A DNA stretch of 64,000 nucleotides from Pirellulaceae bacterium (GCA_045565995.1 JBJLEF010000001.1:1590182-1654181), one strand, 5' to 3'; positions 4,107 through 33,141 are shown, counted from the first letter of the stretch. Translations and numbers: made by a program. Notes: generated from the letters alone by a model not told the origin.

Positions 4107-7100
4107 TTGATGTTTAATCAAGAATCTAAACGTTCTCAAAAGAAATCGAATTCTATTTCATCGAAAAAGAGTTTTGATAGTAAGCGTAAGCTGTTCCTCG
4201 AGAACCTTGAAGATAGGCGGCTCCTGACCGTCGGTCCCCAGTTGATCGGTATTCAGCCCAACGATGGTGAGTTGTTACCGTTTAATTCGGAGCAAGCTTA
4301 CATTCGTGATACTGCACCGCGAGATTTGACATTTAGATTTGATGAAAATCAGGTGTTTAATTCGAATAATCTGGATGGAATCCAGATTACCCGATCTAAT
4401 ACTGATGGTGACTTTACCGCTGCGAGCGTCACGTCCGATTTTAATACCGGTGGTCTTGTGGAGGTGCAATTTACTGCTGCCAAACTGGGAACCGAACAAA
4501 ACGACATCCAGTTAGTATTTAGCAAGCGAGATCAGGGTGGCGCAGGCGCTCCGGAGATTGGTGTTGTTGACAACCGAGTTGAAATCAGTCTGAATACCAA
4601 CCCGGGCAATGAGTCAACGGTTTCTGACCTGCTTACGGCACTGAACCAAAACGCTGATGCATATGCTTTGATTAGAGGTTCCGTCGTTTCTGGCGCAGCG
4701 GGAACGGACGTCGCCACCCCCTCCAATAGTTACTCACCACTGGTTACCGCTGGTGCTAATGATGTAGTGATACAACCCGGCTATATCGGAGTGGCCGATT
4801 CGCCGAACGAAATCATTGTTCGCTTTTCAGAAACCTTGCCAGATGACCTGTATCAGGTTGATGTGTATGGCGAAGGTAAAAATGCGCTTCGCAATAATCT
4901 TGGGATGGCTGTCAACGATGTGACTCTTGATAGTGTTGATAACGGCCAGGACATTTCAACACAATTTGAACTCGATCTGGGCGCTCAGATTATTTCGGTC
5001 GTGCCTCAGCCGATAACGCGTGCTCTCGACGGTACGCTGACACAAAACAAAGATCAGATTCTATTGTTTTTTAACAATGATGATCTTGATCCCGCTTCCG
5101 CACAGGATTCTGACTTTTACCAGTTGATTCGGACTAGTGATACAACGGAATCAACGGACGATGCAGGCTTTGTTTTTACTCCTGACACCGCTGAATATAA
5201 CGCTGAAACAGATGCCGTTCTTCTGACATTTGCCGCTGACTTGGATCAGTTGCCTGGCAGTGGGGCATTTCGTCTGCGAGTTGGTACTTCCGAAGCCTTA
5301 CCAGGAGCTGTCACCTCACTTGTGAGCGCTGATAGCCCTACAAATGATTTTGTAACAGCACAGGGGGTTCCCGCTGCAAGTCTGGAGTCAGGAGGTGTTC
5401 TGATTTCCGGTGAAATCATCGAAGATGCGAATTTTCCTATTGATTTACCGGGTGATAGTACTGATCCGGGACACCGTGAGATCAACTTGCTCGATCAACT
5501 ACATGTCCCGAGTGATTCGGCAGATTCAGATTTAAACATCTCGACAATAAAGTACTGCTTCCAGGATGATCTGGGAATTGTTCCCGGGGATACTGGTGGG
5601 CAGCCTGCGTACAATAATATTACCGAAACGCAGAAGCAACGCACACGCGAAATTCTTGAACAGCTTTCGAACCGAACAGGTGTCCAGTTTATTGAAACTG
5701 AAGGAGAGGGATTCATTGTCGCGACGGCTGATTTAGCTGTTATTGGCATGGTATCAGGTCCGGGTGGAGTACTAGGTGTTAATGGTCCAATCGTGGTCAA
5801 TGGGGTGCCCCGCTCACTCGTTATTATGGATGATGGTGACGAATGGACTGACGAATTTAATGGTTCTTGGTATCAGACGGCGATGCATGAAATCGGACAC
5901 CAGCTTGGCTTGACCCATGCCTATGATCTTCCAGCTCATACATTATTGGGGCAAGACGGTGTTGAACAGGCTCAGTATGGCCCAGCTTTACTCGAAGAAG
6001 ACTTTCCAGGTGATCACGATGAAGTGCACCTTAATCATCTTCATCGTCCTGAAAGTCGTGATATTGATTTATATGAATTTACTCTTACTGCGAAAGGGCT
6101 CTTTACAGCGGAGACATTTGCAGAACGACTGCGTGATTTTAATGAGGGTAATCTTGTACTAAACTCGGCTTTAACTGTCTTTAGGCAAAATGCTGATGGA
6201 TCTCATACAGTCATCGCTCAGAATGACGATTACTTCAGCGATGACTCCTACGTCGAGCTTAATCTGGATCCCGGCACCTATTTCGTAGGGGTATCCTCTA
6301 CCGGTAACACTGCCTATAATCCGACCATTCCAGATTCCGGATTCTACGGAACCTCTGCGGGTATTTATCAACTTAAAATGAACTTCCGATCGGATGTTGA
6401 TGTTGCCTCTGGGAATGTAATGATTGATGCAGACAATCCGCTAGATGCAAATCGCCCTGAAATCGAACTAACAGCTTTAGATGGGGATTCAGATGGTCTT
6501 CCGGGTGGCGTGTTCAATTTTTGGTTTCGTACCGCCGGAGAAACGGACGGCACTCACTCGTCAGGTGAATCTCGCACCATCTTTGTGGATAAATCTGCGG
6601 ATGATGGTGGTAATGGAACGTTGGCTTCGCCATTTAATAATCTTCTTGATGCACTTAATGTCAGTCCAACCGGTGTTCCAAGTTCAACGTCTAATCCTGC
6701 CAGCGTTCAGGAAGGCGATATTCTGCGTATTCTTAGCAATGCTGGTTCCGATGGAGACATTCGAACAGAGTTGGATAATCTTGCTTACGAAATCGGTTTC
6801 GATGATATGGGCAATACGTTGGATGATGGCGCCGTTTTGGAAATCCCGAAAGGCGTGATCGTACAGATTGATGCTGGGGCGGTAATGAAAATGCGTCGCA
6901 GTTGGATTGGTATCGGTTCGACATCGCCCGCTGAGGATCGTGACCGTAGTGGAGGCGCCATTCAGGTTCTCGGCGCCCCTAATTTTATCGATGAACTGGG
7001 TAATCTTGTTCCTCAAACAGGTGACTACTCAGATGCGACACCGCTTCAGGATCTGAAAGGCGAAGAGAATGAAAAAGCGGTTGTTCACTTTACCTCCTAC

Positions 7101-10100
7101 AATGATGAATCGCTCGGACTCGACACCTTTACCTTCGCCACGGAAGCAGTTGCCGGGGATTGGGGGGGGATTCTGATCCATCATGGTGTGGACGGAGCAG
7201 ATCAAACACGGGTCGATTATGCTAAGAATGGTATCTTTCTAAACCACATTAATCATGCTGATATTCGCTATGGTGGTGGCCAGGTGCTGGTAGAGTCTGT
7301 GTCACAGATTATTGATCCAATTGAAATTGTCAACGCCCGCCCAACGATTTCACACAACGAAATCGCCTACAGTCGAGATGCTGCGATCGCGGCTAGTCCG
7401 GACAGTTTTAAAGAATCGAATTTTCATTCTCCTGAGTATCAGGAAGAATTTACGACGAATCCGTTCACAGTGGATTACAAACGAATTGGGCCGGATATTT
7501 ACGGTAACCGCGTCCATGACAATACAACCAATGGCCTGGCAATCCGTGTCGGGACTTTGTCGGGTGACTCGACTCAGAAGCTAACCGTACCGGGTCGACT
7601 GGATGATACAGACATCACGCACATCTTGCAGGAAAACCTGGTCATTGAAAGTACACCAGGTGGACCATTTGAAGAGACTCTTAGTCAATCGCTACAGTTA
7701 GTGACACTGAGTCCTCGTAGTTTAGGGGCAGACGGCTCGTTAGCTGCTGGTACCTACACGTACAAAATGGTTTTTGTAGATAAAAACGGCAATGAGAGTC
7801 TGGCAACCGATGCATCGCGGTCGGTCACGATCAGTGGTTCGGAAAATGGAACTGAATTAAATCAGCTCTTAACGGCAAGCGGAGATTTTGTTGCTCGTCG
7901 ACTTTATCGTCACGACGGTGGGGTAGGAGCCTATCAATTGATTGCGACGATCAATCAGACGGATACACGATATGTAGATGATGGTACGACGCTCAATGGT
8001 GATCTCGACGAAACCGCAACGAGTAAACTGCGGCCTCGATTCGACGCACGCTTGGCGATCGACCCTGCTGTCGTGCTGAAGCTTGACGGAGCGCATATCC
8101 ATACGGAAGTGGGCGCTCAGATTATTGCCGAAGGTCGGGATGGGCACGAAGTCGTTATTACTTCGATTTTAGATGATCGGTATGGTGCTGGAAGCACATT
8201 TGATACTTCTAATGATGGTGCTCCGATTCCAGGTGGTGTCAATGAACCCACTCCTGGTTCCTGGGGTGGTATCTATGCGGCTGCAGAAAGTATCTTATCC
8301 ATCGATAACGCGGTTATCGCTTATGGTGGCGGTGTCACACCGATTGAAGGTACCTTTACTGCCTTCAATACTATCGAAGTTCAACAGGCGAAAGCTCGTA
8401 TTGCCAATAGTATCTTTGAATTCAATGCGGGTGGTTTTGGAGGACAGGCTCCGGCTTCCCGTTATGGTCGCGGAGTGAATGAAGAGAGTGTCATCTTTGT
8501 ACGTAGCGCGCAGCCCGTCATCGTTGGGAATACTTTCCGAAACAATGTCGATGATGATTCGACGACTCGTATTTCCGCGATCAGCATCAATGCCAATGCG
8601 TTAAACCATGAGTTGTTGTTTGATTATGGTCGTAGTACCGGTGAGGCAGGTGCTTTGGGTGGCTATCGGGATAATCACGGTCCGCTCGTGATAGGTAACC
8701 GACTTAGTAACAACGAAATTAACGGGATGGTGATTCGTGGTGAGGTTCTTACCACACAAAGTATTTGGGATGATACCGACATTACCAATGTGTTGTTTGA
8801 CACGATTATCGTGCCAGACTTCCATACGTACGGAGGGTTGCGTCTGCAAAGTAATCCTACGCAGAGTCTGGTTGTTAAACTCGAAGGTGGTAATGCCGGC
8901 TTTGATGTTACCGGCCGTCCGCTGGAGATCGAAGACCGGATTGGTGGAGCCATCCAGATTATTGGCCAACCTAAATCGCCGGTTGTGATTACCTCACTAA
9001 AAGACGATTCTGCCGGTGCTGGGATTCAGCCAAATGGTGATCCGATGGTGGACACTAATAACGATGGCGAATATAACCCGGCGGATTATGTAGATCAGAC
9101 AACGACCAGGATTAACATCAATTTTGGGCCGACGATGCAAAATAATCTGGCCGCGATGCAAACAGTGCAACGTGCGGCTGATTTCTGGTCCACCGCTTTA
9201 GCCGATGATGTCACTGTAACGATCGATGCTGAGTTTGCTGCATTAGGAGCAGGCGTTGCTGGAACCATGTCACCGGTCATGGGGAATATGCTTTATGACC
9301 AATTACGTGATGTGATGATTTCCGATGCTCAGGAACATGAGATTATCGTCGGTCAGTTGCCGGTTTACCAAGGATTAACTACGGATGGTGCAGATGTTTC
9401 GGACACGGTATCGGTAACGAGGGCCAACTTGAAGGCACTGGGGGTTACCAATTTGCCTGTTTCCAATAGCCTTTTTGGGACCGGCGCGATTGATGGCATC
9501 ATGAATATCGCAGATACCTACGATAATGCTGCAGCTGACTTCCTGCAGGTTGCCATTCATGAAATCGGACATGCACTTGGATTTGTCTCAGGTGTTGCAA
9601 ATGTAGATGCCGGGGCGAGTGTGACGAATCTGACCACGATGGATATGTTCCGTCTGGCTCCAGGGCAGGGAATTAATAATTTCACCGATGCCCCACGTAT
9701 GCTTGATCCAACCAAGGATCATGTTTTCTTTGACGGCGGTCACTTTAACCCAAGTCGCATTTCAACGATTGCCGGTCTAACTCGCGGCGATATTCCTCTG
9801 TCAACGGGTGAAGCGACGGGTGACGGCTGGCAGGCAAGTCACTTTAAAAACCGTAACCTGATCAATGGTGTCTATCTCGGCACAATGGATCCGGTCGTGA
9901 ATCCGGCTGCGACGGAAAATGCGAGTGAAAATGACAAACGTGTTCTTGACTTAATCGGTTGGGATGTGATCTATGCCGGACCTGCATCGCCTGGGGATTG
10001 GAATACCGTCTTAATCGATCAGTACGCACACGACCGCAATGTAAGTGTGACTGTTGAAAATGAATCCCGCGATGTGAATGCTCCGGGCCCAAATGCGACA

Positions 10101-13100
10101 GCATTAAAAGCTCAATTCCTTGGTGAATTGGCACCAAATCAAAAGGCTGGTGACGATAATCGACGGCTGGGATTTGAAGTCTCAGGTTTCTTAGCGAATC
10201 CGGACGACGTGGACGTCTTCAGTTTTGAAGCGGAAGCCGGCACGGAAGTCTATATCGACATCGATAAAACCACCCATGCCCTTGATGCTGTATTGGAATT
10301 GCTCGACAGTAATGACCGTGTATTGGTCCGGTCTACCAATTCCTTAGCAGAATCCAATGAAAATGCAGCTTTGGCTGTAGATTCCTCCATGCAGGATAAA
10401 GCCCGCGTTTTGCATCAAGCCGACTCGCCATTCGCCGGGAAGGACTACTGGGCAATCAACCCGCGTGATCCTGGAATGCGAATTCAGCTTCCTGGTCCTG
10501 TTGGAACAAGAAATACTTACCACGTGCGTGTACGCAGTAATACCACTGATGGATTTATCGATGCCTTGCCGATTGGATCCAGCGGATTAACCTCAGGTGC
10601 TTATCAGATGCAAATCCGGCTTGAAGAGCTGGACGAAGTGCCGGGTTCGATGATTCAGTATGCATCGATTGGTTATGCCACTACGGGGATTACCGTCGTG
10701 GGACAGCCAGCTCACTCCTTCCTATCCGGCGAAAATACGGAAGTTGAAACCACTCACCTGCAGAATGATTCCCGTAGCACGGCTCAGTCCATTGGAAATG
10801 TCTTGCAATCCGAACGTGGTGCAATAAGCGTCGCTGGTTATATGCATCCAAACCTTACGGGGAATTCGACCGATTGGGATGAAGACTACTACCGATTTGA
10901 AGTAGCCGCCCAAGAGTTGCGAGGCAGTGAAGTTAATACCTGGCCTGTGGTCATTGACCTCGATTGGGCTGATGGCTTAGGACGGGCGAATCTGAATCTC
11001 GGAATCTACGACGAATCAGGTACTTTGATTTACTGGAGCACGGATTCAAATGTAGCGGACGATCGTCCTCGTCCAAATGTTGACAATCAGGTGGAAGACC
11101 TATCTCGCGGTTCGGTTGGAACTGGTGATCCGCTGATCGGACCGATTAGTCTTTTGCCAGGCGTGTATTATGCTGTTGTTTCGATTGAAGGCCATACTCC
11201 TGATTTTGGCTCAACGACGCAATTAGAACCGGTCAATTCACTTATTCGTATAGCTGAGGATCGTATTGAATCCACAGGTACGCAATCGCATCTCGCCAAT
11301 TCGGGTGACCCATTTGATGGTCACTGGCCCGGACAACAGGGTGGTGATGATGTGGTTCTCAGATATCCTGATGGTACCATTCGTAATGTTCGGACCTTCG
11401 AAGAAGCAGAGCAGCCTGTTTTGTGGAACGAACAGTCGGTGATTCCGTGGACACTGAGCGACGTTAGCCTGATTGTTGCCACGAATGACCGGATGGCAAT
11501 GTATGATCCGTTTACTGGTAGGGAGAGGGTTTTCTACGGGGATGATGTTCATTTTGGTGACGACAACAGAATAGGAGATATCGGGCGGCAATTCGATGGA
11601 ACGGTACATGCATTTTCATCGGCGTTCCTCCCAGTACCAGGTAATGGTTGTGCACCAAGGGATGATAATAATCGGTATCTGGAATTGAATACCGAAATTG
11701 GAAACGCGACAGTTGTTGGTGCAACCGGAATACAAACATTTGAATTAGATCCAGCCAATCCTGATGCTTACAAGCGAGCCAATAATTGTGAGAACGTAGA
11801 TATTGGATACGGTGTTGATATTGAGGCGATGTACTATGGTACGATTAGCCGCCCCCACTCGAATGATCGTTCCTCTGACGATAACTCAAATTCTCCGTCA
11901 GAGCGTCTGTTGGTGGTAGGTAACCGTAATGACCAACTGGTTCAGCAGAACGGTGTGGACTGGAAGACGAATTTGGTTTTGGAATTAGACCCAACGACTG
12001 GAGCAGTTCGTCATACAGGGACTAAAGATCCCGATTTAAATCCTAATGAACACGAAGCTTCTTTAAACGCCTGGGCTGTTGGTAGAATTTTGACAGGTCC
12101 GGAGCTTTCAACAGTGAGTTTTGGCAATCCATTTGGGGCGGCGACGACAACTAATCCGATCAATTTTTCGACGGTTTGGCAAATCACCGATGGGAGCCTC
12201 TTTGAAATTAATGATGGATTCCAGACAACTACATTCGAATTCGATTTTGGGCCAGAGGTTCTACAAGATCTGAACGCCCCGACTGATGCACCTCCACCGG
12301 ATCCATCGAAGGTGATGAAGGATGGTTACTTTTTCGTATTGGATTCAGATTCCAATACGGTTGATGATGAACAAGTCTTCCAATTTGATACGGGAAGCGT
12401 TATCACCTTCACTGAAAATGGTGATCAATTTAATGATGCAACAGTTATCACAATTAATGATGGTATTAGCGGTAAAGCATTTGAGTTTGAAGATACGACG
12501 GCAGCGACACCGGATGGGCTGTCCGATCCGAACGCACAGCAGGTTAATTTTGGTTCTGGTACAAGTGCATTTGGGCTTGCTGCTGAATTAGCGCGTCTGA
12601 TCAATGCTAATAATGATACGGTAATCGTCGCGGAGGCAGTTGGTAACCGTGTCACGCTGATAGATGACAATTCGATCCAAATTACCAACAGTGAAGACCC
12701 TGTTGTGGGTGTCCGACTCGAAGGTGGTGGTGGTGCCGCACCTATTCTGCACATCAAAGATCCATCATTGTTGGTTGATGGTAATACCTTTAGCGTGATG
12801 GAAACTGTATCGAATACGCCGATCATTTTTGAATTCAATAACCTTGCTGTTGGGGGTGGCGTGACGGCCGGTAATATTCAGGTTGATTTCAATGTGACGG
12901 ATACACGACAACAAGTAGCGCAGGCGGTGGCAGCGGCAGTAAGTGGCTCGACTGCTAATACAGGGCTTACTGCACACGTAGGAAATGACCGGGTGGCGAT
13001 TAATGGTCCAATGATTGATATTGGTACTCTAGTCGCTGCTCCAACAGCAGCTAGTCTCGCACTCCCGAGCGTCATTACGGTAGAAGAGAACTTTGATCGC

Positions 13101-16100: not shown

Positions 16101-19100
16101 GAACATTTCGTAGGTCTGGATAATAATGCTGGCGTCTTTGGCGCTACTGCTGTTGGCGGAATTACCATTCGAGACCGCGAAACTATTCGAGTGATTCCAG
16201 GATCGATGATGACGGCGGCAGAGGTTGCGAATGTCGTCGCCGATGGGATTAACCTGACAACTAACCAGAATATTCAGGCCGGGATCGGAGATGCGCAGCG
16301 GATGGTTGTTCTGCAGCACACATCCTTGTTGTCGTCATTCATAGCCTTTAGTGAGAATGCTGGTCAGGCAGTAAAACTCCAATTAGAAACAATCAATGAT
16401 GTGGTCGGCAATGATAGTGTCAAACAACATGGCGATCTACTTCGCATTATCGGGCATGCTGTCGCGGATGCGGGTCCCCTCGGTTTGTTTAATAACGCAT
16501 CTGACTTTGGTGTTGCTAAGCTCCAGAATAACGACCATGAAGGCTTCTACATCGATGACTTTGTCATAGGTTACGCGGAACGCGGTGAAATGATAACGGC
16601 ATTTGATGGAGATGATAACTACGATGGAGATCCCATTGGAGCTTCCCTTGGTGCTTATCAACTGGAGATTCGTCGAGCTTCGGAATATGTCAGTGGAAAC
16701 TTATTTCAACAGACATTTGATACTAATGATCGTCATACATCAGCCTTCCGCATCATAGCTCAGGATGGGGCGGATATAGCGGACGGTGATATCTTCACCC
16801 TGACTGACGGGATGCGTCAGGTTAACTTTGAATTCAGTGATGAAGATAACAGTAACGGAGTAACGCCGGGCAATTTTGAGGTTCCATTCAATTCGGAGCA
16901 ATTAGCCTGGGAAGTTGCTATTTCTATTCGTGATACGATTAATCGCTCTGAAGTACGAGCAGTTTTGGACGTCACGGCCGCTCTAAGTGATGGAACTGAT
17001 GGCACTCGTTTCCCAGATGACGGAGATGGTGACGATCGTGATGACTTAAGAATCGATATTGATCTGTTCGATTTCCCAAATATTCTTTCTTCTAATTTAG
17101 TAGATCTTCACGGAGATGCTTACATTCTTGGTGATGTCAGTTTACGCACTTTTAATCCAGTTTTTCAGCCGGCGGCCGAGCCTAACGATATTCTGTCCCA
17201 GGCAGTGGATACTGGAATCAACGGTCCTCAATCTGCGACATTTGAAGCCACCGGGGCTATTGGAGACAATCAGGATTTGAGTGCGCAACTTGGTAGAGAT
17301 GCTGACCTCTTTCGAATTCAGCTCAATACTGGTGATGAAGTTGATATTCGAGTGGATGCAGCAGCGGGCTCGCTCTTGGATCCCGTTCTTAGCTTCTATG
17401 ATGCCGTCGGTAGTGAATTGGTTGGTGCGCGAGTGGACGCATCGGCAAACGGAGTTGCCGAAATAACTACATTTACTGCTCCGATCGGCGGAACGTTTTA
17501 CATCGGAGTCTCAGGATTCCCAACGGGTGAAAGTAAACCACTCGGTGCTGGCGTAACTTTAATTGATACAGACGATGGTGCCGATACTCCAGTATCCAAT
17601 AATACAGGCTTTTATAGTATCCAAATTTCGACTGGTGCCTTATCTATTGAGGACAGTGCTGCGGTCTTCCAGTTTGTCGAATTCCCAAATGGTATTCTTA
17701 ATACGGGGAGTCAAGTTCGTGGAGATTCTAACCTTCCACGTGAGCAAGGGCAAATCCTGCTGCAAGGAAACCGCATCACTAATTCCCAAACTTACGGTAT
17801 TCATATCGAGGGTGGTAATCGGGTTGCACTAGACGGTAATGCGCCTCATCAGGGTGCTGTTCGACATTTAGATGAACTGAATAATGAAGGACTGGTTCCT
17901 GGTGTGACAGTTATAAATAATCTAATTACTTATAGTGGATCAGGTGGTATTCGATTTAGTGGTGATACCAATGGAGCAGGACTGCCGACTGCTCCAGTTC
18001 CGTTCGGCCGAATAGTCAATAATACAATCGTCGGCATTGGCGGTACGATCATGACTGAGTTTGACGGAAATGATATCGGTATTCAGGTTGACCAAAATGC
18101 TAGCCCAACCTTGTTAAACAATATTATTGCCAATACTGCCCAAGGTATTAATGTTGATCCATCGTCGAATACAACTGTTGTTGGTGGGACGCTTTATCAA
18201 GGGAATCTGTCAAATACTAACTACAGTGGTGAAGATTTCGCTATTTCATTGACTGATATGGACCCGCTTTTTGTTGATCCACGATTCGGTGTGAACAACT
18301 TTTATTTAGATCCTGGTACGCCAGAGAATCCAAACCGCGCGATCGATAGTTCCGTTAGTTCACTGGCCGAACGATTTGAGTTCAATTTAGTGAAAGAGCC
18401 TATCGGATTGGCGCCTTCACCGATTATTGCACCAGTACGCGACGTGACCGGTCAGCTGCGTGTGGATGATCCCTCAGTTGAACCACCAAACGGGCTAGGG
18501 ACTAACGTTTTTATTGATCGTGGTGCAATTGATAGAGCTGATTTTTCGGGTCCAACAGCCGCTCTGATTAACCCGAGGGATAATGATGCAGATGGAGTGG
18601 ATGAGAATTCCGGTCATACGGTTGTTAATCTGGGTGCGAATGCAGTCGTTTCAAGCTTTGAAATCCGACTCAATGACGGTCTAGAGCCCGCGGATCCGAA
18701 TGAAGGAGTTGGTATAGCCGACAACACGGTTACAACCGAAACGGTAGTCTTACGCCAAAATGGTGAACTCCTGTACGACGGCATCGATTACTCATTCAGC
18801 TATAACGAAACAAGTGATACTGTACGCCTAACACCATTGTCAGGAATCTGGACGCCGGATCGTATTTACACAATTGAGTTAGCCAATACCGACCACTGGA
18901 AACTTGTTTCCGAATCGGGTGTTAATATTAATGACGGTGATATATTCAAGATCCTCGATCTCGACGGTAATGAAGCAGATTTCGAGTTTGAACGAGGCTA
19001 TTCGTTGTCCGTTCCACAGACTCTGGAATTACAGATTCCTGAAGAGGCTGGTGGACTTGGTGGCATTGTTGACGGTGAAGTCTTTTCACTGCGAATCGGT

Positions 19101-22100
19101 ACCAATGCTCCTGTAGTTTTTGAGTTTGATCGCGATGCTGATGTAACTGCCGGACGTACTCCGATCCTCTACACCGTGAATAGTACGCTCGATGAAATTG
19201 CGGATGGAATTGTTGCAGCTGTTTCTAATGCCGGAGTTGGAGCAAATCCGGTTAACCTTGGCGACGGTAGAATTCACGTTGGCTCAAATGTTCTTCACAC
19301 CCTCGATACCAGCCTTACCAGCTTGACCCAAACGGGTATTGCCGGGGGTGTCGCTGATGGTGATTACTTTACCATCGATGATGGTAGTAAAATCATCACG
19401 TTCGAATTTGAAAATACCGAAGTTGGCGACGGGCCGCTTGTGGCTGATCCGATCGCGGGTGATGTTGTAATTCAATTTACTACCGAGAAAACTCATATCG
19501 AACTTGCTCAGCTTATTTCCGACTCGATCAATGCAGAAGATCTTAATTTAGATACCGCGACACTGACAGGTGGTATTGTTCATATTGGCGGCACCATGAG
19601 CCACCTATTAAACTCAGCAAATAGTAATCTGTTGCAGCAAGGTGCTCCCGGAGTTCGACCTGAATTCGGAATTCGGATTCCTACCACAGCTGGACAGATT
19701 GCCGGCCTAGATGATGGTGAGACATTTGTCGTGCAGTATGGCTCAAGTGCACCAGTCACCTTTGAATTGAATAATCTCGATGTGGATCCTAGTGTGACGC
19801 TTGGTAACACTAGGATTGACTACAATAATTCAACAACAGTAAATCAGTTGGCGCAGGAAATCGTCATTGCTCTAAAGGGTTCTGGATTGAATTTGGATCC
19901 AGAGATTGTGCCGGGTACCTCCCTGATATCCTTCGGGGCTCGTCCGCAGCACTCACTGGATGTTTCGAATACAGCATTGATCAAAGTAGGGGATCCGAGT
20001 AAAGCTGCGGCGATACCGGTTAATATCCTGCCGCTGGATTCGTTTGATGGAGCTCAAACAGCCGTTCAGATTATCAAAGCAATTCGCTCTGATCAGTCTC
20101 AGGAACAACTCGATGGTATTATTGCTATGCCAACTGGTGCGAATCAGCTGATGGTCACTGGTGCGTTGAATGTCTCAACATTCAGCGATGCATTCCTACC
20201 CGATGATTGGTCTGTTCAGACTCCGCGTGAAATCAAAGAGATAGAAGATTTGGCTACCAATCCACTCAAACCCAATCAGCTTTCCGGCGAAACGATGTAT
20301 ACCATTCAATTGGGAACAGTGGATTACGATATGGGTGATGCTCCTGACGGAAATGGTGTGGCGCCCCAGAATGCCTATCCCACGGTCAGTGGCCACAATC
20401 CAGCGATTCACGTGTCTGGTTCCACCATCTTTCTGGGCGAAAGGGTAGATCCCGATAATGATGGTCAGCCGATTATCGAAGATGATCACGACGGCGATGG
20501 TTATCAAATTGACACTTCGACCGCCGTTGGTATTACGACAGATAGTCCCACAAGCGAAACCCCGACTAATCTGGTCATTTCGAGCGTTGATGTTCTGACC
20601 GTCACGGTCGATGGAAATGGAATTGTCGATGACGACATCCTGGTTGTCGGAAATACGAATTTCCAGCTCGAAACATCCGGTCTTGACCCGGGCAATGGAA
20701 ATGTCTTTGTAGATATTATTCCCGGTACGGACAGCATTAATAATATTGCCGATAAGATTGCGACGGCAATTAATGGCGAAGCAATTGCTGGTGTCAATGC
20801 CACTGCCGTTGGTGCTGATGTTCAAATTACGTCGACTGAGGGCACAGTGGTTGATGCCGATGCGGCTACTGGGATTGATGCAGCAGCACAGCGAGCACAT
20901 GCGGTAGATGGTGAAACCTTTACTATTACGGGTAATGGCAACGACTATACCGTTGAACTTGATAGTGATGGCACCATCATTAATGGAAATATTCAGGCTA
21001 GCTTCGGTGTCGTTGACAGTGCAGATGATCTTGCCGCAACAATCACACAAGCGTTGATCAATGCCAATATTCCTCTAAATCTTAATCCAATTGCCCGAAC
21101 GAATGGTCGCATTGAAATTACCGGCGATGATGCTGATGGCGTGAGCGGTCCTGGTGGCACAGCTATTGGCTTCTTTAACCCGTATGTCTTCACGGAATTA
21201 GTTGTCACGGCATCGCAGGATAGCTTGCTTGATGCCTGGGTTGACTATAACCGTGACGGTGACTGGGATGATCCAAATGAGCAGGTAGCAGCCGCAATGC
21301 AGTTGACTGCGGGTGAAAATGAATTGAGTGTTAAAGCTCCACTGGAGCCAGATTCAGTCCCAGGCCAGACGTTCGCTCGATTCCGAATTAGTGATGTTGG
21401 TGGTTTGCGACCAACTGGCCTCACAACTAACGGCGAAATCGAAGATTACCAAATTGAGATTGTGGATGGCCGACCACCTGAAGCGATCAATGACCCATCC
21501 GTAGCGACTGCTGGATTCGCAACTACGGAAGATGTTGTATTGCCGGTTGGCGCCGTTGATCCAAGTGTGCTCGATAACGATACAGATGCCAATAACAACG
21601 ACATTCGGGTAGATGAGTTCGATGTATTGAGTGCGAGGGGTGCGATCGTGACGGTCGACCAGAACTGGAAGAGTGCCGGAGCATCAAGTGGAACTTTCCA
21701 GTACGATCCGACTGCAGCAGTAGATATTCAGGAGTTACACGACGGTGAAGTTGTTGCCGATACATTCACCTACACCCTGATCGAAGATACGACAACTCCA
21801 AATAGCTTCGGGTTTAAGTCTCAGACTGCAGCCACGGTAACCATCACGTTGACAGGTGTGAACGACGCGCCGATTTCACAAGACATTCCACTGTCGGCCT
21901 TCGAAGATGGAATTGCGGTTACCGCCGACTTTGATGGTGATGACGTCGATAATGATGATGATTTTGATTCACTGACCTTCTCCATTGTAGATACTTTGTC
22001 AGCCGGCGAGGGTACTGTTGCTAATAACGGTGACGGAACATTTACTTTTGTACCAGGCAGCGACTTCCAGGAACTTGCTCAGGACCAAGAGTTTGACGTT

Positions 22101-24305
22101 TCATTCACCTATAAAGCAACAGATCAGCACGGTGAGGATAGTAATGTATCGACGGTCACGATTACGATGACCGGTGTTAATGATGGTCCAACGGCCATAC
22201 CTGATACACGAACGGTTGATCAGAACGTTGTTGCCAGTGAAGCCGCGGACGGTGTGCTAACGAATGATGACGAACCTGATACGGCTGACTCAAAGGTCGT
22301 CACTAAACTTAACGGGACGGATTTAGATATCATCTCCAGTAGTCTGACCATTACGTCAACCAAAGGTGCAACGTTTACGTTGAATGTAGATGGTTCGTTT
22401 AGCTACGATCCAACAACCTCTGTCGAATTGATGGCATTGGACCCGGGTGATACTGCTGATGATTTGTTTACTTATACTATGAGTGATCCTCATGGACAGA
22501 CCTCTCAGACGACAATTACTTTTACGGTAAATGGTGTGAATGACGCACCTATTGCCACGGATGATTCCTATGTAACCGGCCAGACTCAAACTCTGACGGT
22601 CGATCCAGTAGGAGTGCTCGGTAATGATTCCGATGCTGATGCAGATGACTTACCTTTCGTTTCGGAACTGAATGGTAGCACTGCTTTGACCGGTAACAGT
22701 GCAGAAGGTGCTACAGTAACCATCCTTGCTGATGGTTCGTTTACTTACGATCCAACGACGTCAGCAACATTGGCAGCATTAGTTCGTGGCGTCTCGCTCA
22801 GTGATACATTTACGTACACAGTAGAGGATTCACATGGAGCCACGTCAACGGCCATCGTCACGGTGGTAGTGACGGGGGAAAATAAGAATCCTGTAGCGGT
22901 TGATGATGACTTCCTTGGAAATGATGGAGTTTCCGAAGATGACACGTTCGTTGATGCTACAGGTGTTCTGGTGAATGATACGGATGAAGATGATCCCGCC
23001 TCAGCACTGTTTGTCTCGGGCCTGAACGGAATGGGACAGTTAAGTGGTGAAAGTATCAGGGGTGCACTGATTACCATGAATTCTGATGGAACGTTTCTTT
23101 ACGATCCGCGAAATGCAGCCGAACTTCAGGCTTTGGCCGACGGTGATACCACGACGGATACCTTTACCTACACGGTCAGTGACGGTCAGGGAGGCTCCAG
23201 TGAAGGTACTGTTTCGGTAGAAGTGTCTGGTGTTAATGACGCACCGATAGCCAATCCGGATACCGCCTTGGGAGGAAGAAATACTGATCTGATTATTGAT
23301 GTAATCAAGGCTGCTGATGATACTGACCCCGGTCATGATTACGACATTGATGGAACGATTGATGTGGTTACGATTACGGCTCAGCCGGACGTAAATCATG
23401 GTCAGGTTGTTGTAAATGGCGACAAAACAGTAACATTCCAACCAGCAACCGATTTCAGTGGAACGGCAACCTTTAATTATCAACTGACAGATGATTTTGG
23501 GGCGGTATCTAGTGAAGTAACGGTAACGGTTGAAATTAACGATGCTCCCTTTGCTGACGATGATTCGACTGACGCTTACCAAGACGTATTCAATACGCCA
23601 ACACGCATAGATGTCTTAGCTAATGACTCTGATGCGGATGGAACCCTTGATCCGGGAACGGTCACTGTGGTAACTGCTCCGCAGCATGGTAGTTTCACGG
23701 TAGATGTTGACGGAACGATTGTTTATCAACCGGATGATACGCCAACTATCTATGTTGGCCCCGATTCACTCGAGTATACAGTTGCTGATGATGATGGGGC
23801 TGTTTCCAATGTGGCGACCGTATCGATCAACGTGATCCCGGATCCATTCCCATGGCACAACCGTAGTAACGGAATGGATGTTAACAATGATGGATTTGTC
23901 TCGCCTTTAGATGCTTTATTGGTCATCTCGGAATTGAATATATCAGGTTCCTACACCTTACCTGAGCCTAGTGCAGGTTTTACACCACCACCATTTCTCG
24001 ATGTCAATGAAAATGGATCGATCGAGCCGGCCGATGCTCTCCAAATAATTAACCATCTCAATGCTAATGCTAATGGCGAAGGCGAATTTGTAGAACCCTC
24101 AGTAATGGATCTTTCTGAGGTCACTCAGCAAACGCTGGAAACACTCGAAGCACATGGTAATAACGGCTTTGCTTCGGATAATCTGCAGACGACCGGGTTG
24201 TCTCAGGTTCGCAATGAGATTCTAGAAGAATTAATATCAGATATTGCTGATGAGGTTTCTGGTGATAGTCAAGATTCACTGGATGACTTCTTCGGACAGT
24301 TTTAA
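4107..24305 (+). CDS. giant (6732 aa) modular cell-surface/extracellular protein: planctomycete-type N-terminal LExLExRxLL motif, two zincin HExxH metalloprotease-like modules, parallel beta-helix repeats, PPC-like domains, GEVED-like domain, tandem cadherin/VCBS-like repeats, C-terminal dockerin pair
   Basis: Uninterrupted 20.2-kb ORF with only short antisense ORFs. N-terminus is 'KRSQKKSNSISSKK...LENLEDRRLLTV'. Zincin motifs are 'HEIGHQLGLTH' (5886..5918, HExxHxxGxxH) and 'HEIGHALGF' (9558..). PbH1-like 'NNxIxxN' blocks sit near nt 7300-7560, 8380-8760 and 17750-18180. 'DVDVFSFEAEAGTEVYIDID' (10201..) and 'DADLFRIQLNTGDEVDIRVD' (17281..) are PPC-like. 'GEIEDYQIEI' is GEVED-like. Six to seven ~110-aa repeats end in 'GVNDAPI' across 21480..23830. 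'DVNNDGFVSPLDALLVISELN' and 'DVNENGSIEPADALQIINHLN' form a dockerin pair at 23872..24063. Confidence 0.85.
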   Translation: MMFNQESKRSQKKSNSISSKKSFDSKRKLFLENLEDRRLLTVGPQLIGIQPNDGELLPFNSEQAYIRDTAPRDLTFRFDENQVFNSNNLDGIQITRSNTDGDFTAASVTSDFNTGGLVEVQFTAAKLGTEQNDIQLVFSKRDQGGAGAPEIGVVDNRVEISLNTNPGNESTVSDLLTALNQNADAYALIRGSVVSGAAGTDVATPSNSYSPLVTAGANDVVIQPGYIGVADSPNEIIVRFSETLPDDLYQVDVYGEGKNALRNNLGMAVNDVTLDSVDNGQDISTQFELDLGAQIISVVPQPITRALDGTLTQNKDQILLFFNNDDLDPASAQDSDFYQLIRTSDTTESTDDAGFVFTPDTAEYNAETDAVLLTFAADLDQLPGSGAFRLRVGTSEALPGAVTSLVSADSPTNDFVTAQGVPAASLESGGVLISGEIIEDANFPIDLPGDSTDPGHREINLLDQLHVPSDSADSDLNISTIKYCFQDDLGIVPGDTGGQPAYNNITETQKQRTREILEQLSNRTGVQFIETEGEGFIVATADLAVIGMVSGPGGVLGVNGPIVVNGVPRSLVIMDDGDEWTDEFNGSWYQTAMHEIGHQLGLTHAYDLPAHTLLGQDGVEQAQYGPALLEEDFPGDHDEVHLNHLHRPESRDIDLYEFTLTAKGLFTAETFAERLRDFNEGNLVLNSALTVFRQNADGSHTVIAQNDDYFSDDSYVELNLDPGTYFVGVSSTGNTAYNPTIPDSGFYGTSAGIYQLKMNFRSDVDVASGNVMIDADNPLDANRPEIELTALDGDSDGLPGGVFNFWFRTAGETDGTHSSGESRTIFVDKSADDGGNGTLASPFNNLLDALNVSPTGVPSSTSNPASVQEGDILRILSNAGSDGDIRTELDNLAYEIGFDDMGNTLDDGAVLEIPKGVIVQIDAGAVMKMRRSWIGIGSTSPAEDRDRSGGAIQVLGAPNFIDELGNLVPQTGDYSDATPLQDLKGEENEKAVVHFTSYNDESLGLDTFTFATEAVAGDWGGILIHHGVDGADQTRVDYAKNGIFLNHINHADIRYGGGQVLVESVSQIIDPIEIVNARPTISHNEIAYSRDAAIAASPDSFKESNFHSPEYQEEFTTNPFTVDYKRIGPDIYGNRVHDNTTNGLAIRVGTLSGDSTQKLTVPGRLDDTDITHILQENLVIESTPGGPFEETLSQSLQLVTLSPRSLGADGSLAAGTYTYKMVFVDKNGNESLATDASRSVTISGSENGTELNQLLTASGDFVARRLYRHDGGVGAYQLIATINQTDTRYVDDGTTLNGDLDETATSKLRPRFDARLAIDPAVVLKLDGAHIHTEVGAQIIAEGRDGHEVVITSILDDRYGAGSTFDTSNDGAPIPGGVNEPTPGSWGGIYAAAESILSIDNAVIAYGGGVTPIEGTFTAFNTIEVQQAKARIANSIFEFNAGGFGGQAPASRYGRGVNEESVIFVRSAQPVIVGNTFRNNVDDDSTTRISAISINANALNHELLFDYGRSTGEAGALGGYRDNHGPLVIGNRLSNNEINGMVIRGEVLTTQSIWDDTDITNVLFDTIIVPDFHTYGGLRLQSNPTQSLVVKLEGGNAGFDVTGRPLEIEDRIGGAIQIIGQPKSPVVITSLKDDSAGAGIQPNGDPMVDTNNDGEYNPADYVDQTTTRININFGPTMQNNLAAMQTVQRAADFWSTALADDVTVTIDAEFAALGAGVAGTMSPVMGNMLYDQLRDVMISDAQEHEIIVGQLPVYQGLTTDGADVSDTVSVTRANLKALGVTNLPVSNSLFGTGAIDGIMNIADTYDNAAADFLQVAIHEIGHALGFVSGVANVDAGASVTNLTTMDMFRLAPGQGINNFTDAPRMLDPTKDHVFFDGGHFNPSRISTIAGLTRGDIPLSTGEATGDGWQASHFKNRNLINGVYLGTMDPVVNPAATENASENDKRVLDLIGWDVIYAGPASPGDWNTVLIDQYAHDRNVSVTVENESRDVNAPGPNATALKAQFLGELAPNQKAGDDNRRLGFEVSGFLANPDDVDVFSFEAEAGTEVYIDIDKTTHALDAVLELLDSNDRVLVRSTNSLAESNENAALAVDSSMQDKARVLHQADSPFAGKDYWAINPRDPGMRIQLPGPVGTRNTYHVRVRSNTTDGFIDALPIGSSGLTSGAYQMQIRLEELDEVPGSMIQYASIGYATTGITVVGQPAHSFLSGENTEVETTHLQNDSRSTAQSIGNVLQSERGAISVAGYMHPNLTGNSTDWDEDYYRFEVAAQELRGSEVNTWPVVIDLDWADGLGRANLNLGIYDESGTLIYWSTDSNVADDRPRPNVDNQVEDLSRGSVGTGDPLIGPISLLPGVYYAVVSIEGHTPDFGSTTQLEPVNSLIRIAEDRIESTGTQSHLANSGDPFDGHWPGQQGGDDVVLRYPDGTIRNVRTFEEAEQPVLWNEQSVIPWTLSDVSLIVATNDRMAMYDPFTGRERVFYGDDVHFGDDNRIGDIGRQFDGTVHAFSSAFLPVPGNGCAPRDDNNRYLELNTEIGNATVVGATGIQTFELDPANPDAYKRANNCENVDIGYGVDIEAMYYGTISRPHSNDRSSDDNSNSPSERLLVVGNRNDQLVQQNGVDWKTNLVLELDPTTGAVRHTGTKDPDLNPNEHEASLNAWAVGRILTGPELSTVSFGNPFGAATTTNPINFSTVWQITDGSLFEINDGFQTTTFEFDFGPEVLQDLNAPTDAPPPDPSKVMKDGYFFVLDSDSNTVDDEQVFQFDTGSVITFTENGDQFNDATVITINDGISGKAFEFEDTTAATPDGLSDPNAQQVNFGSGTSAFGLAAELARLINANNDTVIVAEAVGNRVTLIDDNSIQITNSEDPVVGVRLEGGGGAAPILHIKDPSLLVDGNTFSVMETVSNTPIIFEFNNLAVGGGVTAGNIQVDFNVTDTRQQVAQAVAAAVSGSTANTGLTAHVGNDRVAINGPMIDIGTLVAAPTAASLALPSVITVEENFDRDQIGTAVQSTVSVFPGFDVGFYEDRINFLGPEVGDFSGVAPRWLDLATEGGTSDPQHIRIGLLAHDQGSDYADPFDPNNPPGTLDGIASKIADAINANYNQDFPNPNPSQTVSATANGAEVSVIGGQISTPPGSPISADGAGPGGTIRGLTAIKTATGRTEQLFAVSDEGGLYEVTVDLRDNNRLNVETEFVVSSTADLNGINFTGLTVGPQNVEDGRYADLLFGIDEEGSVFAFDTSGELQPVFGDGAPVLELFGSMMNPTVTQTLRPIVDASGIVDDDTFSVHGEIFQLEKSGVDPENGNVWVDISGFFGFPLDPVGIGIAIATAINNHPFPAGIDVGATVDFNGDVIIFGDGLGAGAVDASSTAGILHLLPDLVAEFPPVGLVFSNLDTNLFWNQHSADDSSTQQNETDRYSTQVRAYCEADDSWDNVHTTTVICPDPGGPLQLEIDKRQHDQGHGIPPSPDGTRIDYVAGHSSLHFGRGNVDGDPRSYDYIGGAYGSMVSNEFSLAGRSAADKPMLYFNYFKDSDAASVSISDNGGGWVTVAGLGNTGGVWDQQRVDLSSFAGAEHLRLKVDFTTGKRQSGDELRAIEGQYIRDGETFVIDNQTFEFETGISFVFPSGGTMVENSTIELTDENDITTVFEFVLDIANVTTGDQPVLVSSSDSASEIATRFSNALQLEGYVTHVNNERVNIPVNRLGTGPTFVVTDVNTGPMLEGQLGLNVDGNTGLPINVNAVPVYVHEGMDRIQVANELDVSLETAFYAPVIVTESGNEFSDGETFTLSDGVVDPATNLASRRVYEFDTGVLIAIPVAGGASVADGETITFTNSATGDDLTFEFEDIDVADGIAAGNIEIDYQASDLMISLAQKFVDVVNANGALMGLNAQVIDGNRVQIHSTLDTVTATSGTFGIDANSTPGVGLDIEIQASGTDITDQDTLTLTVPGFPTDTAVIFEFNDLAVGGGVTSPNIQVDFDVTDTPAEIATALGDAMVGLFAGVNVTEHFVGLDNNAGVFGATAVGGITIRDRETIRVIPGSMMTAAEVANVVADGINLTTNQNIQAGIGDAQRMVVLQHTSLLSSFIAFSENAGQAVKLQLETINDVVGNDSVKQHGDLLRIIGHAVADAGPLGLFNNASDFGVAKLQNNDHEGFYIDDFVIGYAERGEMITAFDGDDNYDGDPIGASLGAYQLEIRRASEYVSGNLFQQTFDTNDRHTSAFRIIAQDGADIADGDIFTLTDGMRQVNFEFSDEDNSNGVTPGNFEVPFNSEQLAWEVAISIRDTINRSEVRAVLDVTAALSDGTDGTRFPDDGDGDDRDDLRIDIDLFDFPNILSSNLVDLHGDAYILGDVSLRTFNPVFQPAAEPNDILSQAVDTGINGPQSATFEATGAIGDNQDLSAQLGRDADLFRIQLNTGDEVDIRVDAAAGSLLDPVLSFYDAVGSELVGARVDASANGVAEITTFTAPIGGTFYIGVSGFPTGESKPLGAGVTLIDTDDGADTPVSNNTGFYSIQISTGALSIEDSAAVFQFVEFPNGILNTGSQVRGDSNLPREQGQILLQGNRITNSQTYGIHIEGGNRVALDGNAPHQGAVRHLDELNNEGLVPGVTVINNLITYSGSGGIRFSGDTNGAGLPTAPVPFGRIVNNTIVGIGGTIMTEFDGNDIGIQVDQNASPTLLNNIIANTAQGINVDPSSNTTVVGGTLYQGNLSNTNYSGEDFAISLTDMDPLFVDPRFGVNNFYLDPGTPENPNRAIDSSVSSLAERFEFNLVKEPIGLAPSPIIAPVRDVTGQLRVDDPSVEPPNGLGTNVFIDRGAIDRADFSGPTAALINPRDNDADGVDENSGHTVVNLGANAVVSSFEIRLNDGLEPADPNEGVGIADNTVTTETVVLRQNGELLYDGIDYSFSYNETSDTVRLTPLSGIWTPDRIYTIELANTDHWKLVSESGVNINDGDIFKILDLDGNEADFEFERGYSLSVPQTLELQIPEEAGGLGGIVDGEVFSLRIGTNAPVVFEFDRDADVTAGRTPILYTVNSTLDEIADGIVAAVSNAGVGANPVNLGDGRIHVGSNVLHTLDTSLTSLTQTGIAGGVADGDYFTIDDGSKIITFEFENTEVGDGPLVADPIAGDVVIQFTTEKTHIELAQLISDSINAEDLNLDTATLTGGIVHIGGTMSHLLNSANSNLLQQGAPGVRPEFGIRIPTTAGQIAGLDDGETFVVQYGSSAPVTFELNNLDVDPSVTLGNTRIDYNNSTTVNQLAQEIVIALKGSGLNLDPEIVPGTSLISFGARPQHSLDVSNTALIKVGDPSKAAAIPVNILPLDSFDGAQTAVQIIKAIRSDQSQEQLDGIIAMPTGANQLMVTGALNVSTFSDAFLPDDWSVQTPREIKEIEDLATNPLKPNQLSGETMYTIQLGTVDYDMGDAPDGNGVAPQNAYPTVSGHNPAIHVSGSTIFLGERVDPDNDGQPIIEDDHDGDGYQIDTSTAVGITTDSPTSETPTNLVISSVDVLTVTVDGNGIVDDDILVVGNTNFQLETSGLDPGNGNVFVDIIPGTDSINNIADKIATAINGEAIAGVNATAVGADVQITSTEGTVVDADAATGIDAAAQRAHAVDGETFTITGNGNDYTVELDSDGTIINGNIQASFGVVDSADDLAATITQALINANIPLNLNPIARTNGRIEITGDDADGVSGPGGTAIGFFNPYVFTELVVTASQDSLLDAWVDYNRDGDWDDPNEQVAAAMQLTAGENELSVKAPLEPDSVPGQTFARFRISDVGGLRPTGLTTNGEIEDYQIEIVDGRPPEAINDPSVATAGFATTEDVVLPVGAVDPSVLDNDTDANNNDIRVDEFDVLSARGAIVTVDQNWKSAGASSGTFQYDPTAAVDIQELHDGEVVADTFTYTLIEDTTTPNSFGFKSQTAATVTITLTGVNDAPISQDIPLSAFEDGIAVTADFDGDDVDNDDDFDSLTFSIVDTLSAGEGTVANNGDGTFTFVPGSDFQELAQDQEFDVSFTYKATDQHGEDSNVSTVTITMTGVNDGPTAIPDTRTVDQNVVASEAADGVLTNDDEPDTADSKVVTKLNGTDLDIISSSLTITSTKGATFTLNVDGSFSYDPTTSVELMALDPGDTADDLFTYTMSDPHGQTSQTTITFTVNGVNDAPIATDDSYVTGQTQTLTVDPVGVLGNDSDADADDLPFVSELNGSTALTGNSAEGATVTILADGSFTYDPTTSATLAALVRGVSLSDTFTYTVEDSHGATSTAIVTVVVTGENKNPVAVDDDFLGNDGVSEDDTFVDATGVLVNDTDEDDPASALFVSGLNGMGQLSGESIRGALITMNSDGTFLYDPRNAAELQALADGDTTTDTFTYTVSDGQGGSSEGTVSVEVSGVNDAPIANPDTALGGRNTDLIIDVIKAADDTDPGHDYDIDGTIDVVTITAQPDVNHGQVVVNGDKTVTFQPATDFSGTATFNYQLTDDFGAVSSEVTVTVEINDAPFADDDSTDAYQDVFNTPTRIDVLANDSDADGTLDPGTVTVVTAPQHGSFTVDVDGTIVYQPDDTPTIYVGPDSLEYTVADDDGAVSNVATVSINVIPDPFPWHNRSNGMDVNNDGFVSPLDALLVISELNISGSYTLPEPSAGFTPPPFLDVNENGSIEPADALQIINHLNANANGEGEFVEPSVMDLSEVTQQTLETLEAHGNNGFASDNLQTTGLSQVRNEILEELISDIADEVSGDSQDSLDDFFGQF

Positions 24306-24330
24306 GTCTTGAGAAAAAGTCTCTGATGCA

Positions 24331-33110: not shown

Positions 33111-33141
33111 GGCATCCGTTAGTACACCTTCGGAATGTGGT

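Follow-up and report, generated by a model that had tools for sequence, protein, structure and literature searches.

A giant gene of a marine Pirellulaceae bacterium represents a widespread family of probably exported planctomycete proteins with an uncatalogued repeat module and a bounded cassette slot

A giant gene in a 64-kb window of DNA from a marine Pirellulaceae bacterium (the window being the whole stretch analysed, 64,000 nucleotides; GCA_045565995.1, JBJLEF010000001.1:1590182-1654181) belongs to an uncharacterised family of giant, probably exported proteins that is widespread in the Pirellulales and other Planctomycetia. The gene occupies positions 4110..24305, including the stop codon, on the + strand, as do all of the features ascribed to it below, and encodes 6731 amino acids, which are numbered throughout from the ATG at 4110. 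The reading favoured here, with confidence only slightly better than even, is that the protein is exported and kept at the cell surface as a fibre carrying heads for binding and hydrolysis. Giant planctomycete genes are known already, as is the Big_9/Cadherin/Dockerin_1 signature, which in proteins of more than 5000 residues is found mainly in Planctomycetota (PMC11573180). What appears to be new, as a computational description, is the family-level anatomy, a module of about 80 residues and a bounded slot for exchangeable cassettes, none of which was found already described in the literature.

The protein, singled out in a preliminary description of this DNA, is no oddity: at least 554 loci collinear with it are found in GTDB species-representative genomes of Planctomycetota, mostly Pirellulaceae, and together they make up a large family. 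More than 80 collinear homologues are 4000-8000 residues long, and the frame was open to the end of the locus in 73 of the 80 loci that were fetched. The closest relatives among the matches listed were encoded by the metagenome-assembled genome (MAG) of 'Rhodopirellula sp. NAT69' (91% identity) and by the MAG of an uncultured Pirellulaceae bacterium (86%). A 6755-residue protein from a further Pirellulaceae MAG (P0008) was aligned by BLAST, at 35-53% identity, with 5896 of the 6731 residues in the same order, and the alignments of dozens of other homologues span more than 4000 residues. A word-indexed search with residues 470-1655 returned 159 matches, all of the named ones being from Planctomycetota (Pirellulaceae, Planctomycetaceae, Thermoguttaceae, Fuerstiella, Aureliella and Pirellula). 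Among the cultured carriers are Novipirellula rosea JCM 17759, Ca. Laterigemmans baculatus JC640 and Pirellulaceae bacterium SH467, the complete genome of which encodes two paralogues; several paralogues per genome are a feature of the family. The conserved core is the scaffold, namely the N-terminal region, the first beta-helix, the modules, the cadherin repeats and the dockerin. Annotation has been ad hoc, as 'DVUA0089 family protein', 'matrixin family metalloprotease' or 'peptidase'. In an ENA contig of 2.9x coverage (L001) the syntenic orthologue, preceded by the same SNF2 helicase gene, is split by frameshifts into about 12 called genes, indicating that family members are fragmented and under-counted in metagenome annotations.

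The integrity of the reading frame was borne out. The frame extends over 4107..24305, giving 6732 codons when counted from a TTG at 4107, with no internal stop. Since homologues start equally far upstream of the conserved N-terminal motif, the ATG at 4110, codon 2 of this frame, is taken as the start, being more plausible than the TTG one codon upstream. The size of the gene had been regarded as exceptional, and a gene of 20 kb is indeed real, but size alone is unremarkable in a phylum in which 15 of 29 genomes have genes of more than 20 kb (PMC5177795). No tandem repeats were detected in the gene with Tandem Repeats Finder (TRF), and the longest internal direct DNA repeat, which is also the sole near-identical one, is of 91 nt at 90% identity, linking two protein modules 3.1 kb apart (modules 2 and 6, 12814-12904 versus 15943-16033, ..IIFEFNNLAVGGGVT.GNIQVDF.VTDT). 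This pair suggests a recent duplication or gene conversion, while the protein repeats in general appear old and divergent at the DNA level. With no TRF arrays and no longer DNA repeat than this one, collapse or expansion of repeats during assembly, a concern raised in the preliminary description, is unlikely as judged from the sequence alone, and assembly collapse was dropped as an explanation. It is scarcely credible that the frame arose through misassembly or by chance, or that it is a pseudogene: its unusual length and the frameshifted contig of the closest relative might be cited in favour, although that assembly is of low coverage, but 6731 codons are free of stops, uninterrupted collinear homologues come from many independent assemblies, near-identical DNA repeats are not present, and the G+C content is uniform over the window (0.45-0.50). 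The encoded protein is very acidic, with 1012 Asp and Glu residues against 307 Lys and Arg, has only five Cys, and shows no transmembrane segment by hydropathy analysis. About 60% of the chain is without a Pfam or NCBIfam match; a relaxed Pfam scan of ten unannotated segments gave noise and already known PPC matches only, and phmmer found no sequence match in the PDB at E<0.1 for residues 750-3600 or 3340-5697.

The cassette slot was defined by alignment of the family junction together with a census of its inserts. In most members the sequence passes from ..GAGxxPxGxPxxDTNNDG straight to PGDWxxIxLxxYSHDRNV.., over a linker of 1-13 residues, whereas in the present protein 304 residues (1656-1959; 9075..9986) are inserted exactly at this junction, 27% along the chain. 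The insert is a complete metalloprotease domain of the NF038122 ('metallo_LGF') family, matched over residues 1681-1952 with 179.2 bits against a cut-off of 80 and spanning model positions 2-274 of 274, and its motif HEIGHALGF (nt 9558, residue 1817) conforms to HExxHxLGF/Y. Inserts were found in 56 members: an unknown type of about 285 residues in 29, a vWA-like domain (DxSxS) in 11, NF038122 in eight, a choice-of-anchor L domain in five (NF038133, 131 bits), a second unknown type in two, and a subtilase with its prodomain in one (Peptidase_S8, 189 bits); a BNR/sialidase-like propeller cassette was encountered once, in a first census. When members were clustered by their flanking sequence (average linkage, about 400 residues, without reconciliation), the cassette types were interspersed, which is suggestive of exchange over the scaffold. 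The motif HE(I/V)GHALG(F/Y) is kept in eight of ten copies of the NF038122 cassette. The cassette is 94% identical to that of orthologue L003, 79% to that of L004 and 51% to that of L008. The notion that it is the best-conserved part of the protein was therefore dropped: this is true in comparison with L001 and L003 (91-94%), but fails for L004 and L008, in which the first beta-helix is better conserved.

Outside the giant proteins, NF038122 relatives are stand-alone proteins of about 330-430 residues (range 285-508), many with a PEP-CTERM tail (PF07589), from Thermoguttaceae, Verrucomicrobiota and Proteobacteria, the best non-orthologous match having 46% identity; one (P0368) carries a dockerin. 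The present domain thus shares the full-model match and the HEIGHALGF motif with members that are usually stand-alone, often with PEP-CTERM and spread over several phyla, but differs from them in being inserted in an internal loop and in lacking PEP-CTERM. We know of no biochemical characterisation of the NF038122 family. The commonest cassette, of about 285 residues (P0078, P0054, P0014 and L078), lacks HExxH and is matched by no Pfam or NCBIfam model. Precomputed PF28492 matches were noted on members P0181, P0182, P0187, P0204 and P0236, and PF28492 was considered as the identity of this cassette but dropped, as proteins with PF28492 are without it. The junction is not the family's only variable site, since P0094 carries both an NF038122 domain, at another site, and the BNR-propeller cassette (residues 1217-1549 and 1665-2122), and P0271 has an M36 fungalysin domain (residues 2-334) N-terminal to its first zincin. 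An analogy may be drawn with the MARTX toxins, in which a conserved repeat scaffold carries exchangeable central effector domains. Common to both is a conserved giant scaffold with unrelated domains swapped at a defined position; however, the two show no detectable relationship in sequence, the cassettes of the present family are of extracellular hydrolase or adhesin types, and there is no autoprocessing cysteine protease domain.

The preliminary description had recognised two HExxH modules, the first with the extended metzincin signature, and exactly two such motifs are present. Zincin 1 (5517..6029) resembles the catalytic domain of M10 peptidases and matrix metalloproteases (MMPs), its motif HEIGHQLGLTH (nt 5886-5918, residues 593-603) fitting the consensus HExxHxxGxxH with the three His and the Glu intact. 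Peptidase_M10 (PF00413) is matched at residues 549-606 with 39.2 bits against a cut-off of 24, although only profile positions 68-127 of 159 are covered, and phmmer comparison with MMP-3 gave E of about 1e-3. The structure of residues 470-1655 was predicted with AlphaFold2 from a 23-sequence family alignment (predicted local distance difference test score, pLDDT, 75; predicted template modelling score, pTM, 0.63), and the modelled zincin matches the catalytic domains of MMP-11, MMP-8 and MMP-13 in Foldseek (probability 1.0, target TM-score about 0.6), the loop past the zinc motif having pLDDT below 50. No cysteine-switch prodomain (PRCGxPD) was detected: there is no PRC motif, and none of the five Cys lies in such a context. 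Directly downstream, residues 650-750 (6057..6359) form a PPC-like beta-sandwich of the DVUA0089/FDP family, matched by NF038127 (32.6 bits against 29) and, in Foldseek, by a collagenase PPC domain (5sv5) and the collagen-binding domain of ColG.

Between the two zincins lies beta-helix block 1 (residues ~800-1655, 6507..9074, ending in ..GAGIQPNGDPMVDTNNDG), a long right-handed parallel beta-helix that is the best-conserved block of the family. The pectate-lyase-like beta-helix proposed previously is thus upheld at the level of fold, block 1 being placed between the zincins. Block 2 (17721..18899), conserved with P0004 and P0061, contains a Pfam Beta_helix match at residues 4547-4692 (33.2 bits against 25.9). 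Among the structures matched are two adhesins, PfbA and SRRP, as well as autotransporter passengers, sequence identity to the matched structures being only 6-16%. Relative to known right-handed beta-helix proteins (the C5-epimerase AlgG, phage capsule depolymerases or tailspikes, pectate lyases and autotransporter passengers), the helix of block 1 is much longer, multi-unit and interrupted by inserted domains. Block 1 may bind or cut glycans.

The largest component of the protein, missed in the preliminary description, is an uncatalogued module of about 80 residues with the consensus ..DGETFtI.dg....FEFd.....v..GN..V.f....t...iA..i..AIN...l.a...g..i.It, which was found by eye and then by iterated hidden Markov model (HMM) search within the protein. 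There are 12 full copies between residues 2772 and 5673, plus several partial N-terminal hairpins. Array I (12180..17006) comprises seven full copies (12423-12692, 12768-13010, 13920-14144, 14967-15197, 15546-15794, 15888-16133 and 16770-17006) and at least two partial ones, with unannotated spacers between them; array II (18912..21128) comprises five full copies (19059-19289, 19344-19595, 19701-19943, 20616-20837 and 20895-21128) and one partial copy. AlphaFold2 prediction from the 12 paralogous copies gave a beta-beta-beta-alpha-beta-beta arrangement with pLDDT of 90.3, and the module may be a domain with a new fold that forms part of a rod. When its profile was compared with 1.84 billion representative proteins, 1787 were matched at E<=1e-3, 629 at <=1e-10 and 167 at <=1e-30. 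Most proteins with the module have 2000-8000 residues and 5-23 copies each, and fragments consisting almost wholly of the module had no Pfam match. The named carriers are Pirellulaceae or Pirellulales MAG proteins, together with one 1.6-kb contig binned as Desulfosarcina. Module 3 with its linker (residues 3252-3378; 13863-14243) is missing from the close relative L001 and from P0001-P0003, indicating that the number of copies shifts by whole modules between close relatives.

The C-terminal part has the appearance of a stalk. A GEVED domain with the motif GEIEDY (residues 5708-5782; 21231..21455; PF20009, 44.6 bits against 24.4) is followed by about seven cadherin-like/Big_9/VCBS repeats (21477..23843), matched by Big_9 (218.6 bits, six stretches), Cadherin_4 (185, six), Cadherin_5 (138, five), tandem-95 (198.6, six) and VCBS (126.6, five). 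Six repeats end in a VNDAP-type motif, at residues 5917-6476, and a seventh, also located by regular expression, ends in VIPDP; both the GEVED-like domain and the six to seven VNDAP-terminated Ig-like repeats had been described correctly. GEVED was defined as a stalk-adjacent domain of CshA-type fibrillar adhesins (PMC10952558), with which the giant protein shares a head-stalk-anchor logic, a GEVED domain just ahead of the stalk repeats and domain shuffling. It differs from these adhesins in having neither CshA_NR2 nor LPXTG, in a stalk that includes beta-helices and the new alpha/beta module, and in its protease domains. Beyond the repeats lies a type I dockerin module (23874..24062; Dockerin_1, PF00404, residues 6589-6651, 41.2 bits against 22.9, profile positions 2-57 of 57) made up of two calcium-loop and helix segments, DVNNDGFVSPLDALLVISELN and DVNENGSIEPADALQIINHLN, with the loops DVNNDGFVSPLD.. 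at residue 6590 and DVNENGSIEPAD.. at residue 6631. The dockerin proposed earlier is therefore real, but is a single module with its two usual calcium loops rather than a tandem. The chain closes with an acidic tail of 80 residues (24063..24302), which begins with GEGE and ends in ..SLDDFFGQF. This order (PWxNP, two dockerin segments, GEGE and an acidic low-complexity tail of 80-120 residues) was observed in 99 homologues, and the end is acidic and then hydrophobic in relatives also (..DEAFGDLI, ..DSIFGAF, ..LDAAMADLL). The dockerin and the acidic tail may together constitute a planctomycete-specific anchoring or sorting device that operates without a classical cohesin.

At the other terminus (4110..4244), a basic hydrophilic leader of about 28 residues precedes the putative planctomycete export motif (KLFLENLEDRRLLTVGPQLIGIQPNDG; LENLEDRRLLTVGPQLIGIQPNDG), and both are closely kept in homologues. 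The PF07595 match at residues 25-43 is just below threshold (23.5 bits against 25.5), but LENLEDRRLL can be recognised by eye, and 27 long homologues share it together with the flanking residues; hydropathy analysis revealed no hydrophobic signal segment (h-region) at the N-terminus. This planctomycete-specific motif was originally put forward as a signal for export in R. baltica; it occurs in 52 proteins of Tuwongella immobilis, including eight of the ten longest, and of the 20 motif proteins that were detected, eight were found solely in the S3 fraction, soluble in sodium dodecyl sulphate (PMC8567305). The giant PF07595 surface proteins of R. baltica and T. immobilis (PMC8567305) have in common with the present one the phylum, an RRLxxExLExRxLL-type motif, a length of more than 4000 residues and extracellular repeats; here, however, PF07595 falls 2 bits short of its cut-off, and no published description of the collinear family, the module or the slot was found. 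The following region (residues 46-469; 4245..5516), family-conserved on comparison of homologues and without a Pfam match, probably consists of Ig-like repeats.

From this arrangement we infer the route of export, surface retention, orientation, catalytic activity and substrate of the protein as follows. The basic leader and the LExLExRxLL motif would direct export, and the polypeptide would fold outside the cell into an elongated, calcium-rich and highly acidic fibre composed of the two right-handed beta-helices, the 12 or more alpha/beta modules of about 80 residues, GEVED and the seven or so cadherin-like repeats, held on the cell surface by the dockerin-like calcium module and the acidic tail at its C-terminus. 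The distal part would display modules for binding (PPC-like and possibly MAM-like) together with hydrolytic heads, namely the MMP-like metzincin, a beta-helix of polysaccharide lyase, epimerase or depolymerase fold and, in this lineage, the NF038122 zinc protease, presumably acquired as an insertion in a surface loop where beta-helix 1 ends. Such a fibre could attach to polymers of particles or host surfaces and degrade protein, perhaps also glycan, as might befit a marine bacterium associated with particles or algae. The earlier interpretation is partly supported overall, and its view of a cell-surface, dockerin-bearing, multifunctional exoprotein fits the export motif without an h-region, the lack of transmembrane segments, the very acidic composition and the extracellular set of domains. 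Moreover, both zinc sites are intact in this lineage, which favours a real proteolytic capacity.

A number of observations weigh against a displayed protease fibre. The Met-turn Met of zincin 1 is replaced by Leu (TLLGQ), a change shared with L003 and L001, whereas relatives have TIMGS and L004 has TIMGQ. The domain occupies the same place in 77 retrieved homologues, but HExxH is kept in only 25 of them, and among 78 GTDB loci that match zincin 1 the full HExxHxxGxxH is kept in 39 and lost in 38 (e.g. MTGIGFMLGLE and AAGVGLLLGLQ). The slot is empty in 107 of the 163 members in which both flanks are present, the beta-helix fold is common to enzymes and purely structural adhesins, and neither a cohesin nor any secretion or anchoring gene was found among the reading frames of the 64-kb window. 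With the zincin 1 motif lost in about half of relatives and two-thirds of members without a cassette, proteolysis cannot be the core function of the family; the two protease modules are both present, as first described, but they are not equivalent core features, the first being degenerate in about half of relatives and the second an optional cassette. Zincin 1 accordingly shares with M10 metzincins and MMPs the HExxHxxGxxH motif, the above-threshold Pfam match and the predicted MMP-11/8/13 fold, but departs from them in the missing cysteine switch, the Leu at the Met-turn, the partial Pfam coverage and the loss of the motif in about half of orthologous domains. A purely structural or adhesive fibre (a holdfast, a fimbria-like structure or a cell-cell adhesin), in which the protease-like domains are vestigial, serve in binding or act in self-processing, is judged rather unlikely but remains a serious alternative, because the family needs neither protease. 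Its conserved core is the scaffold, several cassette types are adhesin-like (vWA-like and choice-of-anchor L), and PfbA, SRRP and autotransporter passengers are among the structural matches of the beta-helices. Conversely, the intact zinc motifs of this lineage, the 51-94% identity of the cassette across orthologues, and the occurrence of NF038122 relatives as free-standing secreted proteins with the same motif speak against such a fibre, and the subtilase cassette with its prodomain suggests that the slot displays active enzymes.

The dockerin brings into consideration a cellulosome-like ('planctosome') subunit, docked to a cohesin on a separate surface scaffoldin for multi-enzyme polypeptide degradation. 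The statement that planctomycete dockerins have no known cohesin partners proved too strong, as computational work on the freshwater planctomycetes of the Nemodlikiaceae has led to the proposal of a cohesin/dockerin system that includes zinc peptidases with dockerins (PMC6461901). The match to Dockerin_1 is above threshold with both calcium loops, while a stand-alone NF038122 relative (P0368) has a dockerin of its own. Both systems thus combine a dockerin with zinc metallopeptidases in a planctomycete, for which extracellular protein degradation has been proposed, but the peptidases of that proposal are individual small proteins attached to a cohesin adaptor (PMC6461901), in place of which there is here one 6731-residue fibre, unlike a cellulosomal enzyme subunit, and no cohesin in the window. 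The planctosome is, besides, itself a computational hypothesis concerning a different family. The dockerin of the giant proteins is always followed by the conserved acidic tail of 80-120 residues, which classical cellulosomal dockerins, to our knowledge, do not have, and a docked subunit is considered distinctly unlikely. A type I-secreted giant adhesin of the LapA, BapA, SiiE or MpIBP type, with the acidic tail as signal and the dockerin loops as a calcium folding ratchet in place of RTX, is highly unlikely. The giant protein resembles these adhesins in its size, acidity, calcium-dependent VCBS and cadherin-like repeats and lack of a classical hydrophobic signal peptide; it also has a conserved C-terminal tail with an acidic-then-hydrophobic end (DDFFGQF, DEAFGDLI, DSIFGAF), calcium-binding modules directly upstream of this tail, and a weak match to the BapA/LapF adhesin C-terminus (NF045619). 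That match, however, is far under its cut-off (57 bits against 180), RTX nonapeptides (GGxGxD) were absent in a motif scan, as were LPXTG, PEP-CTERM and the cysteine switch, no ABC transporter, membrane-fusion or TolC-like gene is among the open reading frames of the window, and export in planctomycetes has been linked to the strongly conserved N-terminal motif (PMC8567305), which is present here. Finally, the seven or more unrelated cassette types at one junction, interspersed under scaffold clustering, recall polymorphic toxins or contact-dependent competition proteins in which the variable cassette is a delivered effector. This is very improbable, and was dropped on the position and the domain types of the cassettes, which are internal (27% along the chain) rather than C-terminal and comprise proteases, vWA-like and choice-of-anchor L domains and a BNR propeller but no known toxin fold; most members, indeed, are without any cassette, and the giant gene is followed not by a small immunity-like gene but by those of an extracytoplasmic function (ECF) sigma factor and a kinase.

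Several minor features of the protein were also identified. The preliminary description had listed two PPC domains (PF04151), but both matches, at residues 2033-2079 (DDVDVFSFEAEAGTEVYIDID; 10206..10346; 23.6 bits) and 4397-4469 (RDADLFRIQLNTGDEVDIRVD; 17298..17516; 20.8-25.3 bits), fall just under the Pfam threshold of 25.9 and are suggestive only, the different PPC-like domain at residues 650-750 being better supported. A further PPC-like motif (DWDEDYYRF...; 10857..11144) was recognised by sequence pattern. A possible MAM-like jelly-roll domain lies at 14457..14879 (residues ~3450-3590), where two of seven homologous segments matched InhA-like_MAM or MAM with E of about 0.006; a family profile of residues 3350-3595 gave no useful match in the PDB.

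An AT-rich spacer of 345 nt precedes the start of the giant gene, and a terminator-like hairpin with a 15-bp stem (24330..24362) is situated 25 nt past its stop codon. Upstream are genes for an alpha/beta hydrolase and the SNF2 helicase. Downstream, on the same strand, are the gene for the ECF-type sigma factor (24477-25094) and one for a Ser/Thr kinase fused to NMT1_3, a periplasmic-binding-like domain (25135-27405), a pair that could act as regulators. Farther downstream are a symporter and a PLD-like protein, then a sulfatase, PhoD, a DUF7133-cytochrome c protein and other typical Pirellulaceae genes. The interval 30215-38624 encodes an NfeD/YqiJ-like membrane protein, a 739-residue product without a Pfam match and a 1767-residue protein with DUF3686 ('ATPase involved in DNA repair'), DUF7902 and AAA domains, and a frame of 1360 codons on the - strand (57841-61923) has a sub-threshold GHL10 match only. 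The neighbouring genes were considered as partners of the giant protein but dropped, being for a hydrolase, a helicase, a sigma factor, kinases, transporters and sulfatases, with no cohesin or secretion component.

Giant genes in Planctomycetota are recognised but functionally opaque, and the present family is both shared and testable: since it is common rather than strain-specific, a function found for one member would annotate hundreds. Cataloguing the module, which is absent from Pfam and NCBIfam and present in about 1800 protein clusters, would annotate much of the 'dark' sequence of giant proteins, and the conserved dockerin-plus-tail C-terminus offers a concrete bait with which to find planctomycete dockerin partners. 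The precisely bounded slot amounts to a natural domain-exchange experiment, and suggests that the fibres present hydrolases or adhesins away from the cell. A broader possibility, put forward tentatively, is that the family constitutes a programmable surface-display scaffold, in which a conserved giant fibre, its rod partly made of the new-fold module, is anchored by the dockerin and tail without a classical cohesin and has one or more defined loop slots in the beta-helix, where heads (NF038122, subtilase, BNR propeller, vWA-like, choice-of-anchor L and two unknown types) may have been swapped repeatedly. If true, planctomycetes would have a modular means of changing which materials are bound or digested by their surface fibres.

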